Source: Candidatus Bathyarchaeia archaeon
Lineage (GTDB): Archaea; Thermoproteota; Bathyarchaeia; Bathyarchaeales; Bathycorpusculaceae
Reading direction: 5' to 3'
Length of the DNA stretch: 64,000 nt
Assembly: GCA_038883795.1 (NCBI GenBank)
Contig: JAVZLK010000006.1
Coordinates: 29,444 to 93,443, forward strand
Within the stretch, counting starts at the first letter, position 1; each line of letters begins with the position of its first letter. The notes beneath the pieces are model-generated. The model worked only from the letters and a program-made list of their open reading frames with translations, was not told the DNA's origin and made no database searches. Made by a program: the position numbers and the translations under genes. Shown here piece by piece: positions 3,331 through 41,937 of this stretch.

Positions 3331-6300
3331 CAGCTCGGCACCTCTAAGAACTTAGCTGAAATAACATTTGAAACGCCGTTGCGTTCATAAACTCCATAAA
3401 CCTTCTGAGCTTTATTCACCATTTCAGGCTTCAAAGTTATGACTATAAACTGGGTTTTTTCAGACTCCTCTACAAGGAGGTCGGCAAGCTTTGAAACGTG
3501 GAAGGCATCTAAGTGAGCGTCTATTTCATCGAGAATGTAGAAGGATGTTGGCGTAATCTCCTTAAGCGTGAAAAGGAAAGCGACAGCCGCAACAGAGCGT
3601 TCACCGCCGCTTGCTCCGCTCACAACTATGGAAGGCTTGTGGGGAAACTGAACTATCATGTCGATGCCGCCAGAAAATGGGGCGTCGGGATTCTCAAGCT
3701 TCAAGGTGGCATTTCCCCCGCCAGTAAGTTTTGAAAAGTATTTTTGTAGGTTGGCGTTAATTTTTTCAAAGGCTTCCATGAAGACTTTTCTTTTCTTCTT
3801 TTCAATTTCATCCATAAACTGGACTATGGCTTGCTTTTCCCTTTCCAGCTCGTTCAACCTTAGGGATAGTTCCTTATACCGTGAAATTTGTTCGGCATAG
3901 TGCGACAAGGCAAGCTGGTTCACAGCACCTATTCTTTCAAGCTCAAACTTCATCATCCTCATTGACAATTCGGCTTCTTCAACCTGCTTAGGCGTTACTT
4001 CTAATGGTTGTTCGTAGCCAAGCTGTTTAAGCTCGTTTCTGTACTGCTCAAGCTGAAGCAGAGAAGTTTGGATGTTGAGTTGAAGCTGGTTTAATAAGCG
4101 GTCGGCTTGCTCGTATTCTGAGTCAAGCTTTCTGAGCTCCTTATCTATATCATCTATTTGGGCAGTGAACTTTTTGGCTTCCTCCCTCGCAGAGAAAACT
4201 GTTTTAGAAAGTTCAATGCGGCTTTTCTCCAGCTCTGAAAGCTCTTGCTTTAGCGATTCCCGTTCCTGCAATGCGTCAGCAACTTCCTTCTCAACCCTTC
4301 TCAATTGCTGTTCAACTTTTGCAAGTTCAATTTTCGCGTTTTTGTAGCCAACTCTTAAAACATTGTCGAATTGGGATTGGAGGGTTGAAATTTCAGTTTG
4401 AAGTGTGCCCAGCTTCTGTCTTAAAATGATAATTTCTTCTGAGAGTTTCTCTCTTTTAACTTCTAACTCTTGAATGTGTGATGGGTCTGTTTTGCGCCTA
4501 AGAGAAGTTAGCTCATCTTGAAGTTTCCTTAACTCTTTTTGGATGGAGCTCCTTTCAGCCTTGTTCAGCCACATCTGAGCTTTTTCATCCTCAATTTCCT
4601 TCTCAAACTTTGCAATGTAACGGTCAACCCTTCGAACGTTGCCCCTTGTCCTTTTAACGCTTCTTTTAACCCTCGCAATTTCCCTATCTAGGGTGGTTAT
4701 AGCTTCAGATAAGCGTGCAATTTCAACACGGGTCTTGTCTATCTCCTCTTCAAAAGAAGCAATGTCACTTGTTCTTCGTGAGAGATGCTGTTGAAGGGCG
4801 TTAACGGCTTCGTCGAGACTTTTTATGGCTACCTCGCTTGGAATAATTGCGGAAAAGTCGATTGGAGCCCGATAGTAGCCGCCTTCGAGAGCAGCCCCTC
4901 CTGCCTCATAAAGGTCTCCATTAACCGTAACTGCCCTGTAGCCTTCGCTTGATAGTGCAAAGGCAGTTTTATCATCAGAAACAATTAGCGTGTCGCCGAA
5001 AACATAGTTTATGGCTGGTTCGTAATGTTTTTCGCATTTTATGAAATAGGGGGCTAGGCCGTTTATTCCCTCTTTTTCTGGGATTTTTATGGTTTTAGGA
5101 GTTAACGTTCCTTGTAGGGGGATTATTTTTACTCTTCCCAACTTCATTCTTCTTAAAGTTTCTGCGCAGGTGAAGGCTGAATCAAAATCCTTAACAACTA
5201 TGGCATCGAGCCATCCAGCAGCTGCGGCCTCAATTGCTTGTTGATAAGCCTTGTCAATTTTGACAAGCTTGCGGAGCCTTCCATAAACGCCTGGAATTAC
5301 ACCTAATTCGCCTAATTCTTCTATGCTTCTCAGGGCTTTTTCTTCTGAGGCTACTGTTTCTGCAATTTCTCTTTGTGTGGCAAACTCTACAACGGCTGCA
5401 CGGGCGGAATCTGCTATTTTTCCAGCTTCAGCTATTTCCCTTTCTATGGCTTCTTTTTGGGCGATTCTCCGCTCAAGCATCCGCTCCAAATTTTTAAGCT
5501 GAGTTTTCTGCTCCTTCTGTACCTTTTCAAGCTCAGCTAAAGATTTTTCAAGGTCACTTAGTGTAGATGTGAATCTTTCTCTGCGGTCCTTTAGATCCTT
5601 AAGCCGTCTGGTGCGGATTTTAATGGCTGTTTCATGCTTTACTTGTTCAGTTTTTAAGTAGGCAAGTTTTTTGTTGTGACTGCTGATTTGCTGTTCTATT
5701 TCGCGGATTCTTTTGCTGTTTTCTCCTAGATTCTCCCAGAGTTGAGCGGCTTCAGCTGCCAAAGCGTCATGTTCAGCCTGTTTTGCTTTTATTCGACTGG
5801 AAATTTCTTCATGCTCGGTTCTTAACTGTTTTATTTTGAGGCGGTTTGCGTGAATTTCTTTTCTTATGGATTCATACTGTTGAAGAGTGTTTTCCCTAAT
5901 CCGTTTTAAGCCTTCAAGGGTTGTTTTTCCAGAGGTTATTTTGGTTGTTAATTCGGTAAGTTTTGATTTTAACTCGCCTATTCTTATTTGAACCTTTAAT
6001 ACTTGGGAACCGCCTTCTTCGACGATTTCTGAGCTTAATTTTCGCCATTCACCTTCCACTTCTCTTCTCTTTAATCTATACTTCTCTCGAAGTTCCCTCA
6101 ATTTTTCAACTTTGCTTCGGATGCTATCGGCTTGGGAGGAAATTTCCTTCACTTTCTTTTGTAGCTGCGCCATGTCATGCGACAGCTTCACGGTTTCAAA
6201 CTTTTTTATCTCTTCCTGGAGAAAATTGTACCTTAAAAGTTGGTTGCGTTCCCTTTCTAAGTCATCCACTCTCTTTTGCACTTCGTCTATTCTGCCCATG

Positions 6301-6884
6301 GCAGTACTTATGGAAAGGTCTGCCGCCCGAAGTTTTTCTTCAGCTTCAGCCTTTTCAGCATCATACTGGGCTATGCCAACCAAATCCTCAATAATTTTCC
6401 TCCGTTCAATCGGCGAAATATCAGTCAATCGGGTTATTGTGCCCTGTAAGATTATGTTTTGGCTTGTGGAGCTTAACCCAGCCATGGAAAGAATTTCTAA
6501 GATGTGCGCTCTTGAGATTCTTCTGCCATTAAGCCTATACACGCTTTGTCCGTTTCTGTAAACCTCTCTTGAAATGGTAACGGTTGCTGTGTCAACGGGC
6601 ATGCGTCCATCAGAATTGTCAAATTGAATTATGACTTTAGCCATCTTCGCCCTTTCCAGTCCAGCCTTCTCAGAGCCGTGAAAAATTAGTTTTGCAGCAT
6701 TTTCCGCCCGAAGCCTTCTTGTGCTTAATTCGCCTAAAGCGAATAGGGTTGCGTCAACAATGTTTGTTTTTCCGCTGCCATTTGGACCAGTAATTGCCGT
6801 GAAACCCTTATCTAACACTACTTTAACGGTTTGCGGACCGAAAGATTTGAAGCCTTTAAGCTCAATTTTTTTAATGTAGGGCAT
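3330..6884 (-). CDS. smc: Chromosome segregation protein SMC
   Basis: GFKSF, Walker A GPNGSGKT, long coiled coils, hinge (GVYG..L; G..GG), SGGERS signature, LDEIDAHLD Walker B. Confidence 0.98.
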   Translation of the reverse strand: MPYIKKIELKGFKSFGPQTVKVVLDKGFTAITGPNGSGKTNIVDATLFALGELSTRRLRAENAAKLIFHGSEKAGLERAKMAKVIIQFDNSDGRMPVDTATVTISREVYRNGQSVYRLNGRRISRAHILEILSMAGLSSTSQNIILQGTITRLTDISPIERRKIIEDLVGIAQYDAEKAEAEEKLRAADLSISTAMGRIDEVQKRVDDLERERNQLLRYNFLQEEIKKFETVKLSHDMAQLQKKVKEISSQADSIRSKVEKLRELREKYRLKRREVEGEWRKLSSEIVEEGGSQVLKVQIRIGELKSKLTELTTKITSGKTTLEGLKRIRENTLQQYESIRKEIHANRLKIKQLRTEHEEISSRIKAKQAEHDALAAEAAQLWENLGENSKRIREIEQQISSHNKKLAYLKTEQVKHETAIKIRTRRLKDLKDRRERFTSTLSDLEKSLAELEKVQKEQKTQLKNLERMLERRIAQKEAIEREIAEAGKIADSARAAVVEFATQREIAETVASEEKALRSIEELGELGVIPGVYGRLRKLVKIDKAYQQAIEAAAAGWLDAIVVKDFDSAFTCAETLRRMKLGRVKIIPLQGTLTPKTIKIPEKEGINGLAPYFIKCEKHYEPAINYVFGDTLIVSDDKTAFALSSEGYRAVTVNGDLYEAGGAALEGGYYRAPIDFSAIIPSEVAIKSLDEAVNALQQHLSRRTSDIASFEEEIDKTRVEIARLSEAITTLDREIARVKRSVKRTRGNVRRVDRYIAKFEKEIEDEKAQMWLNKAERSSIQKELRKLQDELTSLRRKTDPSHIQELEVKREKLSEEIIILRQKLGTLQTEISTLQSQFDNVLRVGYKNAKIELAKVEQQLRRVEKEVADALQERESLKQELSELEKSRIELSKTVFSAREEAKKFTAQIDDIDKELRKLDSEYEQADRLLNQLQLNIQTSLLQLEQYRNELKQLGYEQPLEVTPKQVEEAELSMRMMKFELERIGAVNQLALSHYAEQISRYKELSLRLNELEREKQAIVQFMDEIEKKKRKVFMEAFEKINANLQKYFSKLTGGGNATLKLENPDAPFSGGIDMIVQFPHKPSIVVSGASGGERSVAAVAFLFTLKEITPTSFYILDEIDAHLDAFHVSKLADLLVEESEKTQFIVITLKPEMVNKAQKVYGVYERNGVSNVISAKFLEVPS

Positions 6885-38088: not shown

Positions 38089-40770
38089 ATGGCGCAGAAA
38101 CGTTTAGAGGATTTTACCCGAGCAGAAACTGAAACTGTGAAGGAAAAGGAAGCGGAAGCCCTACCCTTCATGGAAACCATAAAAAAGGAAAAACAAAAAG
38201 TTGCCTATCCACCAGTGGCTCCAGAAAACCTGCCACCTTCGTATTTTATTTCTGCCACTTATGATGGGAAAACTGGAAAAGCCCTCATCAAACTTTACGA
38301 GCCAGTTTCGGGAAAAATCTATTTCTGGTACGACAACACTGGGCATAAGCCTTATTGCCTAACAAACCTTTCACCATTAGAGCTTGAAAAAATAAGCCGC
38401 TTAAAGCAGCATCCAGGCTTTGACCATTTTGAAATTGTGGACAAAATTGACCCATTATTAGATAAGGCTGTTAAAGTGACAAAGATTGTGGCTAAAGACC
38501 CATTAGCCATTGGAGGACGCCCAAAGGGCTGCATAAGAGACATAATCCCAGAAGATTTCCCATCCGTGGCAGAAACCCCAATTTCTCCAGAGCAAATCAA
38601 GGTTTGGGAATCAAAAATAAAGTATTACCAATCCTACATTTATGACAAAAATCTTTTGCCAGGAATGATTTACGAAGTAAAAAATAGCAAACTAGTTCTA
38701 ACAAAAGTCGAAGAAGCAGAAAAAATGGTTAGGCGCATAAAAGAAATTTTCAAAGAAGCCACGCCTGAAGAGTTACAATTTATTGAAGAGTGGGCGAGAC
38801 TTTTAGAGTATCCCGCCCCAAAATTTCTTTACGTGGCACTGGACATAGAGGTTTATACGCCAGTTCCAACAAGGATGCCAGACCCAAGGGAAGCCGCCTA
38901 CCCGGTTGTTTGCGTTTCGCTTTATGGTTCAGATGGACAAAAAAGAGTTTTACTCTTAAAGAGAGAAGGCGTCCGTGAAGGAACAGAACGCTTGCCAGCC
39001 GACGTAACGCTTGAATATTTTGACTCTGAAAGTAAGCTGATAAAGGCTGTTTTTGAGGCGTTGTGGAGTTATCCCTTCGTCCTAACTTTTAACGGTGATG
39101 ATTTTGACCTGCGTTATTTAGCTCATAGAGCCCTTAACCAAGGTTTTAGAAGAGACGAGATTCCCATAGAAGTTGGTAGGCGTGTCTGTCTGCTAAAGTA
39201 TGGCGTGCACATTGACCTTTACAAGTTCTTCTTCAACCGTTCAATACAAATTTACGCTTTTAACAACCGTTATCGGGACGTAACCCTCGACGATGTTGGC
39301 AAAGCCCTAATTGGAATGGAAAAGATTAAACTAGAAAAAAGTTTAGGAGAATTAACCTACACAGAACTCGCACAATACTGTTTTAGGGATGCAGAAATCA
39401 CCTTTAAACTTGCAAGTTTCGAAGACGAGTTGGTTATGAAGCTTATTTTGGTTTTGGCAAGAATCAGTAGCATGCCGATGGAAGATGTAAGCCGCCAAGG
39501 AGTTTCAAGATGGATAAGAAACTTCATGCACCGTGAACACAGAAAAAGAAACATGCTCATCCCAAATGCTGAAGAAATCATTGCTGCAAAAGGAAAAGCA
39601 GCCACAAAAGCCATAATCAAAGGCAAAAAATACAAGGGCGCAATAGTTGTAGAACCAGTTCCAGGAGTTCACTTCAACGTTTCAGTGATGGACTTTCCAA
39701 GCTTATACCCATCAATAATAAAAGTTTGGAACCTCGGCTACCAATCCATATTATGCAAACATCCAGAATGCCGCAGCAACCTCATTCCAGACACGCCCCA
39801 CTGGGTCTGCACAAAAAAACATGCATTGGAAAGTCTTCTCATAGGCTCGCTTAGAGATTTGCGTGTCCAATGGTACAAACCAAAATCAAAAGACAAAACC
39901 CTGCCAGCCGAAATTAGAAGCTGGTACAACATAATCCAAGGAGCCTTAAAAGTTATTTTGAACGCAAGTTACGGTGTTTTCGGAGCTGAAACCTTTGACC
40001 TTTACTGTCCCCCAGTGGCGGAAGCAACAGCAGCCATCGCAAGACACTCGCTAACCCAAATACTGAAGGAAGCAGAAGATCTTCGCATCCAAGTGCTTTA
40101 TGGCGATACAGACAGCATATTCCTGAAAAATCCATCAAAAGAACAAATTGAAAAACTAGCCCAATGGACAGAACAAGCGCTAAAAATGAGCTTAGACGTG
40201 GATAAAGTGTATAGGTATGCTGTTTTCAGTTCAAGAAAGAAGAATTACCTCGGAGTTTTGGAAGACGGCAGCGTCGACGTCAAAGGGTTGACGGGCAAGA
40301 AAAGGCACATTCCAATCTTCATAAAAAAGGCTTTCGACAAAATGAAAGAACGCCTAGCCACCGTAAAAACACCAGCAGACTTTGAAAAAGCTAAGAAGGA
40401 CATTTGCGAAATCATCCGCGACTGCTACATGCGACTAAAGAGGCGAGAATGGGAAAGCCTAAACGACCTTGCTTTCAACGTGGTTTTAGGCGAAGAACCA
40501 GAACGCTACACAAAAACAACACCCCAACACGTAAGAGCAGCAAGAATACTAAAAGAAGGTGGGATGGAGCTTAAAGCGGGCGACCTAATAAGCTTCGTGA
40601 AAGTTGTTAAAGAACCCCATGTAAAACCCGTTGAGTTGGCAACAAAAAACGAGATAGATGTGGACAAGTATATTGCCTATCTCCACTCAACCTTTGACCA
40701 AGTTTTAGACGCATTAGGCTTAGATTTTAACGAGATAATAGGATTAACAAAGCTTGAGAGGTTCATGTAG
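38089..40770 (+). CDS. polB1: Family B DNA polymerase, PolB1 type
   Basis: YDNTGHKPYC, exonuclease DIEV and TFNGDDFD, DFPSLYPS, KVILNASYG, YGDTDS, KKNY. Confidence 0.96.
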   Translation: MAQKRLEDFTRAETETVKEKEAEALPFMETIKKEKQKVAYPPVAPENLPPSYFISATYDGKTGKALIKLYEPVSGKIYFWYDNTGHKPYCLTNLSPLELEKISRLKQHPGFDHFEIVDKIDPLLDKAVKVTKIVAKDPLAIGGRPKGCIRDIIPEDFPSVAETPISPEQIKVWESKIKYYQSYIYDKNLLPGMIYEVKNSKLVLTKVEEAEKMVRRIKEIFKEATPEELQFIEEWARLLEYPAPKFLYVALDIEVYTPVPTRMPDPREAAYPVVCVSLYGSDGQKRVLLLKREGVREGTERLPADVTLEYFDSESKLIKAVFEALWSYPFVLTFNGDDFDLRYLAHRALNQGFRRDEIPIEVGRRVCLLKYGVHIDLYKFFFNRSIQIYAFNNRYRDVTLDDVGKALIGMEKIKLEKSLGELTYTELAQYCFRDAEITFKLASFEDELVMKLILVLARISSMPMEDVSRQGVSRWIRNFMHREHRKRNMLIPNAEEIIAAKGKAATKAIIKGKKYKGAIVVEPVPGVHFNVSVMDFPSLYPSIIKVWNLGYQSILCKHPECRSNLIPDTPHWVCTKKHALESLLIGSLRDLRVQWYKPKSKDKTLPAEIRSWYNIIQGALKVILNASYGVFGAETFDLYCPPVAEATAAIARHSLTQILKEAEDLRIQVLYGDTDSIFLKNPSKEQIEKLAQWTEQALKMSLDVDKVYRYAVFSSRKKNYLGVLEDGSVDVKGLTGKKRHIPIFIKKAFDKMKERLATVKTPADFEKAKKDICEIIRDCYMRLKRREWESLNDLAFNVVLGEEPERYTKTTPQHVRAARILKEGGMELKAGDLISFVKVVKEPHVKPVELATKNEIDVDKYIAYLHSTFDQVLDALGLDFNEIIGLTKLERFM

Positions 40771-40775
40771 TTCTC

Positions 40776-41336
40776 TTACTTTTCTGCAGCAACTTTTAGT
40801 CCTTTTGATTTCAATGCTTCTATAACGCTTGGTTTGCTTAAGGCTGTTAGTAAGGTATACCCAATTATTGCCAATGCCACTAAACTGCTTGCAGTAATAC
40901 TCATCATACTTGTTACCCAAATAGGCCATGCTGCTGGGAACTCGATGCCAAAAAAGTTTGACGGAGCCCCAAATATCATCCAAATATAACTGCCAACGAA
41001 AACACCGATAACTATCGATCCCAACAAACAGCCTAATAGCTGTCTATTTCTCAGCACATAAATCAAAAAGGCGGCAATCAAATTAGCTATGGGTCCAAAG
41101 GCAACATCGTAAATGCCGTTCGGAAGAGCAAGAGAAGTCGTGGCATTGCCAACAACACATCCCAAACTTACACCAACAATAACAGGCCACCCGAAAAGAG
41201 CAGATAATGGGATAAGGCAATCAGCGAAACGAAGCTGAATACTGGCTGCAGCACTCAATCCTTGAATGGCCACAAGAACAGCATATAAAGCTGCGAAAAC
41301 CGCTGTTAATGCTACGTCTTTAGTATCAAATTTCAT
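40776..41336 (-). CDS. queT: QueT-family ECF substrate-binding component (7-deazaguanine precursor transporter)
   Basis: AVFAALYAVL, IQLRFAD.L.PL, GVSLGC.VGN, D..FG..A.L; ATG 41336 after GGAGGTGA. Confidence 0.85.
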   Translation of the reverse strand: MKFDTKDVALTAVFAALYAVLVAIQGLSAAASIQLRFADCLIPLSALFGWPVIVGVSLGCVVGNATTSLALPNGIYDVAFGPIANLIAAFLIYVLRNRQLLGCLLGSIVIGVFVGSYIWMIFGAPSNFFGIEFPAAWPIWVTSMMSITASSLVALAIIGYTLLTALSKPSVIEALKSKGLKVAAEK

Positions 41337-41340
41337 TTTT

Positions 41341-41400
41341 TCACCTCCTACACCGGGGTTTTTATGGCGGAACGGGTGGAGGTCCACTCACCCGCCATGA
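41341..41400 (-). promoter_or_regulatory. Structured GC-rich 5' leader of queT (riboswitch candidate)
   Basis: AUGGCGG/CCGCCAU stem enclosing GUGG-ACCU-CCAC, A-tract, and ACCUCC complementary to the GGAGGU SD. Confidence 0.5.
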
Positions 41401-41463
41401 TTCTATTCACAAATTCTTAAGTTATTAATTTTACTGAAAAGAGCCGTTTGGGAAAGCGTTGTA

Positions 41464-41937
41464 TTATTTCTTTTCTTCAGTTTCCGCTTGAACTTCCACA
41501 GTTTCTGCGGCTTCTGGGGCTATTTTCACGGTTACATCTTCGACTGGAATGCCTTCTTTACGTGAGAAGAGCAAATCTTGGGGTGGGGGTGGCACATTTA
41601 ATATTGTGGATAGAAGGTACATGGCTGTGAATGCCGTCTGATAAATTCTTTGAAAGACGTAGGGGACTTTGGTTTCTGGGTCAACCTCCAACATCTTATT
41701 TATTTCAGCATCCTTTCCGCTTAGGGTTGCCATGCCCTCTATTTCAAATTTTACGAGGCTTGGTTTTGTTGCTAAAAACAGTTTGAAATCTACAATAACC
41801 ATTTGGCTTTTGCGTTCCCTCTCCTCCAATTTCGCTTTCACATCAAAATTTATGCTTTCAGCTACGCTTTTAACGTCTAAACGAATACCAGTAAGGCTGG
41901 TTATTTCTACCTTAACCGAAGCATTAGGAACATACAA
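41464..41937 (-). CDS. Conserved hypothetical protein (possible SecB-like fold)
   Basis: Four alternating beta strands followed by a helix and a PPPP tail. Confidence 0.65.
   Translation of the reverse strand: MYVPNASVKVEITSLTGIRLDVKSVAESINFDVKAKLEERERKSQMVIVDFKLFLATKPSLVKFEIEGMATLSGKDAEINKMLEVDPETKVPYVFQRIYQTAFTAMYLLSTILNVPPPPQDLLFSRKEGIPVEDVTVKIAPEAAETVEVQAETEEKK

Follow-up and report, generated by a model that had tools for sequence, protein, structure and literature searches.

A conserved pseudoknot upstream of archaeal queT genes, a likely translational riboswitch for preQ0 or a closely related 7-deazaguanine

The closest described systems to the leader reported here are the three preQ1 riboswitch classes. 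Members of preQ1-I control queT as well as biosynthesis genes, and some of them bind preQ0 as well as preQ1 (PMC11625349); their ligand-pairing C is found in a UC (type I) or AC (type II) dinucleotide directly 5' of the P1 3' strand (PMC11625349). The preQ1-II class (RF01054) is about twice the size of preQ1-I, folds as an HLout pseudoknot with helices P1–P4 and is limited to Bacillota (PMC11625349), and preQ1-III (RF02680) was found by searching the 5' UTRs of queT genes (PMC11625349). In archaea, according to a 2024 paper, only few riboswitches have been predicted and fewer have been validated (PMC11549558). No description of an archaeal preQ-type riboswitch was found in the open-access literature that we searched, which did not cover supplements and subscription journals.

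The queT leader and its sequence elements

The stretch of DNA analysed here (64,000 nt from a Candidatus Bathyarchaeia archaeon, hereafter the window) carries a queT gene at 40776..41336 on the minus strand (186 aa plus stop; Pfam PF06177 QueT, E 2.2e-23, 83.6 bits). The leader lies directly 5' of it at 41341-41398, on the minus strand as are all elements named below; copies of the motif span approximately 58–75 nt. Read 5' to 3', it opens with AUGGCGG (41392..41398; conserved core GCGG), which forms the 7-bp stem P1 with CCGCCAU (41364..41370), both strands having the same support. Within P1 lie a junction GUGA (41388..41391), the first two bases of which, G and U, are nearly invariant in the alignment of leaders; a hairpin P2, GUGG-ACCU-CCAC (41376..41387), optional and variable among relatives; and an invariant CCGUU (41371..41375), the CCG of which is the proposed 5' strand of a pseudoknot designated PK1. 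The sequence ACCUCC (41378..41383), overlapping the loop and 3' arm of P2, is complementary to the Shine-Dalgarno (SD) core GGAGGU (41348-41343, 6 nt before the start codon). This anti-SD is the 5' strand of a further pseudoknot, PK2, the 3' strand of which is the SD sequence GGAGGUGA (41341..41348), ending 4 nt before the ATG start codon of queT (41336-41334). P1 is followed by an A-rich linker, AAAAA (41359..41363; 8–20 nt in relatives and always with AAA at its end), then by a tail CCCCGG (41353..41358), in which CCC and GG are invariant and the final CGG would supply the 3' strand of PK1, and by a UGUA spacer leading to the SD.

The original prediction, made from the sequence alone, had described on the minus strand a TATA-like stretch, a stem, an inner hairpin, an internal anti-SD and an A-tract, in a leader said to be GC-rich for an intergenic region and to have a loop that does not match the preQ1-I consensus. 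All of these features were confirmed at their positions. The GC content of the 56-nt core is 60.7% vs 41.2% for the whole window, and only 0.49% of 56-nt windows are that high. The statement on the loop held as well, and the leader is absent from Rfam: cmscan of window positions 41000-41800 against Rfam 15, at E up to 10, gave no match to preQ1-I, -II or -III and returned four unrelated chance-level matches (E 5–8). It should be noted that the fold predicted from this one sequence is nothing unusual (MFE −24.2 kcal/mol, z = −1.80, 9 of 200 shuffles as good), and the case against chance therefore rests on comparison.

Distribution and gene association of the motif

A tblastn search with the QueT protein covered 41 related genomes and gave a queT match in 38; 30 loci were fetched, 29 of them with upstream sequence. 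The motif was present in all 29, the QueT proteins of which are only 34–89% identical. The closest named relatives of the window queT and its leader are Bathyarchaeia MAGs, e.g. at locus L114 with 67% QueT identity, which places the window in this class. The consensus reads (N)GCGG-GU(RR)G-[variable, with CCUCC]-(C/U)ACCCGUU-CCGC(N')-[A-rich]-AAA-N-CCCGG-[2–7 nt]-GGAGG-like SD-start. An exact pattern of three conserved blocks was matched in 305 of 401 sampled genomes of the window's order, mostly by one copy each, with no match to the reversed pattern in the same 401 genomes. With a covariance model built from 122 distinct leaders, a single copy was found in the window's own genome (81.6 bits), and variants of the motif were detected in 21 of 85 pattern-negative genomes of the order (1/5 and 20/80); the remaining 11 pattern-negative genomes were not in the model scan, so that the motif occurs in at least 326/401 genomes. 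Far from being rare, the motif is carried by most of the order's genomes.

Using a looser pattern, we detected matches in 68 of 401 genomes of a phylum-wide sample, including other orders and other classes (19/32 in one family). By eye, at least three of these matches are false, and 9 matches in 6 genomes were obtained with the reversed pattern as control. The covariance model added 5 of 80 further pattern-negative genomes from this sample. A pattern scan of a named genome collection returned at least 80 loci. Of 80 examined, 35 were motif-like, all from archaeal MAGs; most of these are labelled Bathyarchaeia or Bathyarchaeota and the others Methanomethylicota, Nitrososphaerota, Promethearchaeota (one) or simply 'archaeon' (one). 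The remaining 45 loci, all bacterial, were rejected as GC-rich chance matches without A-rich linker or SD. Further loci with the motif belong to Candidatus Methanomethylicus mesodigestus (L213) and a Nitrososphaeria MAG (L192).

The motif is associated with genes of a single pathway. Among 130 distinct instances, 103 are followed by an ORF of at least 100 aa, the other 27 being mostly short stretches or contig ends. These ORFs encode QueT in 100 of the 103 cases, QueE-like radical SAM proteins in two (L156 and L143; the best NCBIfam matches are all QueE models, below cut-offs) and a protein without family assignment in one (L188). A QueC-like ORF comes after the QueE-like gene of L156, giving a queE-queC operon, QueC having been read from motifs without a profile scan. 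With a threshold of E 1e-20, QueC was detected in 8 of the 41 relatives, each time just 3' of a queT; motif coordinates were recorded directly upstream in five of these eight, and at L009 the motif precedes the first queT of a queT-queC-queT cluster. The genome of the window (87% complete) encodes a 543-aa ArcTGT-type protein and other TGT-family ORFs, and neither QueC nor QueE was found in it with the queries used. With ArcTGT present and QueC and QueE not found, the organism therefore appears to be dependent on imported preQ0. The simplest regulatory logic that we can infer is one in which preQ0 feeds back on its importer.

Different queT leaders were observed in sister genomes. One sister genus lacks the motif in all four genomes scanned, three of which possess queT. 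Its queT leaders read GUAGUUUCCG-N-AACCUAC-N-AAAAAACCGG. They can be aligned over their whole length with Rfam PreQ1, but the score of 10 bits (E 8.9) is far below the gathering score, which is 39. A pattern for such preQ1-I-like leaders was matched in 7/401 genomes of the order, all seven being motif-negative by both pattern and model, and an eighth leader with one extra base was also found. The preQ1-I-like leaders (L235-L237, L279-L285 and L287, of the same family) share with the motif the gene, the position, an A-rich tail ending in CCGG and a short distance to the start; unlike the motif, they are approximately 35 nt long and have neither the anti-SD hairpin nor a GGAGG-type SD. A third, longer kind of leader occurs in two genomes of another genus (L286 and L288), with GGCGGG(U/A)UGAG-NU-CCGCC and ACCCC in common. 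Varied structured leaders 5' of one gene are also seen for the bacterial preQ1 classes.

Helices, unpaired bases and promoter

A conserved, covarying structure 5' of queT orthologues, which had been named as the check on the original prediction, was found. Stem P1 is real and supported by covariation. Its outer pair (4-41 of alignment A1, n = 121) is GC in 89 leaders, UA in 11, GU in 7, AU in 4, CG in 2 and other in 8. Among the pattern-selected leaders no variation is seen at the four core pairs; the changes come from model-found variants: the core is flipped to GGCGC/GCGCC in L234, L241, L242, L244, L249, L251 and L253 (all of the order) and in L259 (of another order), and a G-C pair is replaced by A-U in L240 (GACGG/CCGUC). 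L239 has a G-U pair. RNAalifold recovers P1 alone, pseudoknots being outside its model. Several bases outside P1 are invariant or nearly so. Within A1, junction base G9 and the whole of CCGUU are invariant and U10 is ≥90% conserved, the junction variants being GUAG, GUGA, GUUA and, in L260, AUGA. The UU before the P1 3' strand is invariant in 122/122 aligned sequences. Linker bases A39-A41 (numbering of the first sequence) are also invariant.

PK2, in which the loop anti-SD pairs with the Shine-Dalgarno sequence, is likewise real and covarying. Each of its six base pairs has varied on both strands among the leaders, and pairing is kept in 93.4% of cells. For P1 and PK2 taken together, the covariation score was 0.330 vs 0.154 in shuffles (0/500 reached it) and 0.065–0.105 with slid partners. 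Part of the PK2 signal comes from a correlated one-base insertion (CCUCC/GGAGG vs CCUCCC/GGGAGG). The remainder derives from separate compensatory sets, namely GUCUCU:AGAGAC (L068), GUCUC:GAGAC (L069, L070), CAUCUCC:GGAGAUG (L074), UUCUCCU:GGGAGAA (L066), GCUUCC(U/C):GGGAGGC (L067, L079), CCUCU:AGAGG (L252) and GCUCCGU:ACGGAGC (L263). An alignment-free test gave a mean of −12.79 kcal/mol for cognate loop-SD duplexes vs −11.34 for non-cognate ones, which none of 5000 permutations reached. The shuffle and permutation statistics are inflated by kinship among the sequences; the compensatory examples named above stem from different lineages. The proposal that the internal ACCUCC masks the SD thus held, in the form of a covarying anti-SD:SD pairing, and in place of a stem followed by a passive A-tail the architecture is a pseudoknot, possibly a double one. 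With its distribution taken into account, the motif is a widespread cis-regulatory pseudoknot.

Two observations on the SD itself count against the riboswitch reading set out below. At about −13 kcal/mol, the anti-SD:SD helix is so strong that it might form even with no ligand present. SD-like pentamers precede 17 of 61 window ORFs, vs 15–19 after shuffling; this crude test shows no general enrichment, so the dependence of the organism on SD-led initiation remains open.

The other pairings are less well supported. The P2 hairpin has 89% of cells paired, with few compensatory changes. Its variants include GCGG/CCGU (L143), GCGG/CCGC (L243, L247, L250), GUGU/AUGC (L069) and an extended GUGGG/CCCAC, and in the short forms L061-L065 it is missing, with no obvious competitor helix there, a further point against the riboswitch reading; any role of P2 is inferred. 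PK1, three base pairs between the loop CCG and the tail CGG, is a tentative assignment, resting on one compensatory and one wobble change: L252 has CCAGUU with the tail CCUGG (G-C replaced by A-U), and in L261 CUG retains a wobble pair. Beyond these two changes, both strands never vary. Five 'reduced' variants lack the tail GG (L256-L258, L262, L263). A metagenome scan for loop-G variants returned 15 stretches, all of which were by eye chance-like, GC-rich and without anti-SD or SD.

Two further pairings were rejected. A competing CGGGUG/CACCCG helix, noted in the original prediction, is present in the window sequence but unsupported comparatively: no compensatory change was seen, and the GGCGC/GCGCC variants of P1 break the pairing. 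The other is a helix between the tail CCCG and the 5' CGGG, which these variants also break.

Upstream of the window leader lies an AT-rich, TATA-like box, AAAATTAATAAC (41421..41432), approximately 26–37 nt 5' of the GCGG core of P1, the promoter role of which is inferred. Across 131 aligned leaders, an A/T-rich box is found at −37 to −29 from the GCGG core, with 92–95% A/T at positions −32 and −31 and the consensus A-A-T-T-T-T-T-A, i.e. AAATTTTTA-like. The usual archaeal spacing from TATA to transcription start is about 24–27 nt. Taken with the fixed distance between the box and P1, this would place the RNA 5' end a few bases before P1, in the window at 41399..41402, an inference for which there are no RNA data. 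A start downstream of the hairpin would have refuted the original prediction; the promoter box sits 5' of the hairpin at a fixed distance, which is supportive, with the start itself inferred. As for a leader peptide or uORF attenuator, this was considered and rejected: at the site of the window ATG (41398), a start codon (ATG, GTG or TTG) exists in no more than 57 of the 132 leaders, and the reading frames, which stop after 4–30 codons or never, encode peptides that differ among leaders. The window uORF (16 codons, from 41398 to the TAG at 41350-41348) is not conserved.

Proposed mechanism, rival explanations and comparison with known classes

The most likely explanation, in our opinion, is that the leader at 41341-41398 supplies both aptamer and expression platform of a translational OFF riboswitch that responds to preQ0 (7-cyano-7-deazaguanine) or to a 7-deazaguanine very similar to it; there are no ligand-binding, expression or transcription start data, and the identity of the ligand and the direction of switching are inferred. 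All computationally testable parts of the proposal that this is an undescribed translational switch for a 7-deazaguanine held, with ligand binding being an inference. According to the mechanism we propose, the RNA would begin at or just before P1 and fold as an H-type pseudoknot, with the following order of elements: P1, (N)GCGG/CCGC(N'); a long first loop with GU(RR) and an optional P2 that bears the anti-SD; CCG-UU; the A-rich linker; AAA-N-CCCGG; 2–7 nt; and the SD. The anti-SD and SD would pair as PK2, and the tail CGG would probably pair with the loop CCG as PK1, in the manner of P2 in preQ1-I. The ligand may be held by the invariant unpaired bases near the top of P1 (the junction G-U, UU, AAA and CC), thereby locking the knot. 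In the locked state the SD would stay paired and queT would remain untranslated, as would queT-queC or queE-queC elsewhere; without ligand, P2 would reclaim part of the anti-SD and the SD would be set free.

A bolder reading is that the motif represents a fourth structural class of 7-deazaguanine riboswitches and the first native to archaea, a preQ0-sensing double pseudoknot with the SD within the aptamer, which governs queT together with queC and queE in most Bathyarchaeia and in other Thermoproteota. We lean towards this reading by a modest margin, with the ligand again inferred. If it is correct, the motif would be among the most widespread natural riboswitch candidates in archaea, coexisting in sister lineages with the preQ1-I-like and the third, longer queT leaders.

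Of the alternatives, the one that survives best is that the motif is a strongly elaborated subtype of preQ1-I with the same kind of sensor, in which a hairpin and an anti-SD were inserted into L1 and a second pseudoknot was added. We consider this possible but unlikely. In its favour are the same topology, with P1 of 5 bp followed by an A-rich tail and by a 3' strand pairing into the loop, as well as the resemblance of the proposed PK1 (CCG:CGG) and the tail AAAA-CCGG to the preQ1-I-like queT leaders of sister genomes, themselves alignable end to end with Rfam PreQ1. Against it, there was no RF00522 match in cmscan at E up to 10, the ligand-recognition C is replaced by the invariant UU, the support for PK1 is weak, and even the sister leaders fall far short of the gathering score (10 bits vs 39).

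It is still less probable that the leader is read by a protein or another trans-acting factor, such as a regulatory RNA-binding protein or one of the archaeosine-pathway enzymes. The invariant single-stranded bases and the strict link to one pathway would fit a protein site too, there are no ligand data, and this explanation cannot be excluded without experiments. However, no conserved regulator gene lies beside the motif, the contexts of which vary (queT alone, queT-queC, queE-queC); the motif is small and knotted with the SD built in, like known 7-deazaguanine riboswitches; and a preQ1-I-like RNA takes its place in sister genomes. A ligand-independent SD mask, either an RNA thermometer or a constitutive translation damper or mRNA stabiliser, could draw on the stable, covarying SD:anti-SD helix and the unexceptional single-sequence fold and cannot be excluded without experiments, but is very improbable, as it would need neither approximately 20 invariant unpaired bases nor an invariant P1 sequence and a conserved tail, and would not be restricted to 7-deazaguanine uptake and synthesis genes across classes.

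If the preferred reading, a preQ0-responsive riboswitch, is true, archaea would regulate the supply of the archaeosine precursor by RNA, and a new small aptamer fold for a 7-deazaguanine would be added to those described. Salvage dependent on queT would then be the rule in Bathyarchaeia, with QueC found in only 8/41 relatives, and a natural SD-masking switch would become usable in archaeal genetics.

As to known systems, the motif has three of the general properties of a riboswitch, with ligand binding inferred. Its 5' UTR structure is conserved and contains helices that covary. It is located upstream of transport and synthesis genes for one metabolite in several operon contexts. It also has an expression platform, the SD forming the 3' strand of the covarying PK2; which way the switch works is inferred. 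It shares with preQ1-I (types I–III) a short P1, an A-rich 3' tail and an SD at or in the 3' end. The H-type pseudoknot topology, in which the 3' strand returns to pair with the loop, is shared in so far as the tentative PK1 is accepted. It differs from preQ1-I (RF00522) in that the dinucleotide next to the P1 3' strand is an invariant UU and not UC or AC, that the first loop (19–30 nt) has an added hairpin and anti-SD, and that a separate SD pseudoknot of 5–7 bp is added. Furthermore, the motif is archaeal, whereas in a 2024 review of the preQ1 family the phyla named are all bacterial and the word archaea does not occur (PMC11625349). PreQ1-III has its expression platform far from the aptamer (PMC11625349), unlike the motif with its SD inside the fold. 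With preQ1-II (COG4708 RNA), the motif has in common the location 5' of queT and an SD within the aptamer pseudoknot (PMC11625349); however, the preQ1-II model gave no match and the conserved sequence blocks are unrelated. The motif is likely to work in a manner resembling preQ1-I and preQ1-II while belonging to neither class, its function being inferred.

Genomic context of queT and use of Shine-Dalgarno sequences

In the window, queT (40776-41336, minus strand) is convergent with a large ORF (38089-40770, plus strand), their stop codons being separated by only 5 nt. Judging only by a YGDTDS motif in its translation, this ORF is a putative DNA polymerase of family B. An ORF of 157 aa (41464-41937, minus strand) precedes the promoter of queT, and no family was found for it in Pfam or NCBIfam; its 3' end and the spacer following it are conserved in the closest relatives. 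SD-like pentamers were not enriched before the long ORFs of the whole window (17 of 61, against 15-19 after shuffling), and the strong Shine-Dalgarno sequence upstream of queT, GGAGGUGA, may therefore be atypical of this organism, a possibility that rests on a crude test.

QueC and TGT-family genes

Among 41 relatives searched, QueC was detected in just eight (genomes G009, G012, G013, G020, G021, G024, G034 and G040), in every case encoded immediately 3' of a short queT paralogue, sometimes with a second queT following it. Going by QueC alone in these relatives, a precursor of preQ0, e.g. 7-carboxy-7-deazaguanine, may be what is salvaged. The window's own genome encodes four ORFs of the tRNA-guanine transglycosylase (TGT) family on contigs C3, C10 and C27, with lengths of 543 aa, 561 aa (a partial match) and twice 358 aa; the archaeosine pathway by itself does not account for the two 358-aa ORFs.

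Variant and alternative queT leaders

In one Bathyarchaeia MAG (locus L188), the ORF chosen downstream of the motif (5727-6557, minus strand; 277 aa) had no match in Pfam or NCBIfam. Either its start was wrongly chosen or a different gene is under control of the motif; both are possible. A reduced form of the motif, lacking hairpin P2 and the GG of the tail, was found at five loci (L256-L258, L262 and L263), with the sequence GCGG-GUGGUU-N-CUCCC-UCCGUU-CCGC...AAACCCC-AAAA-GGGAGG. Its position before queT is unchanged and the anti-SD:SD covariation is kept, as exemplified by GCUCCGU:ACGGAGC in L263.

Two genomes that belong to another genus (loci L286 and L288) have a third, longer kind of queT leader, approximately 170 nt upstream of the gene. 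Its 5' part, GGCGGG(U/A)UGAG-NU-CCGCC and ACCCC, resembles stem P1 and the tail of the main motif, and is followed by about 90 more conserved nucleotides, including CCUCC and the SD GGGGGUGA.

A preQ1-I-like queT leader, GUAGUUUCCG..AACCUAC..AAAAAACCGG, is found in sister genomes (loci L235-L237, L279-L285 and L287) and is confined to genomes without the main motif. Within the order it was detected before queT in 7 of 401 genomes, and there is one variant in addition. The Rfam PreQ1 family could be aligned with this leader from end to end, with a score of just 10 bits.
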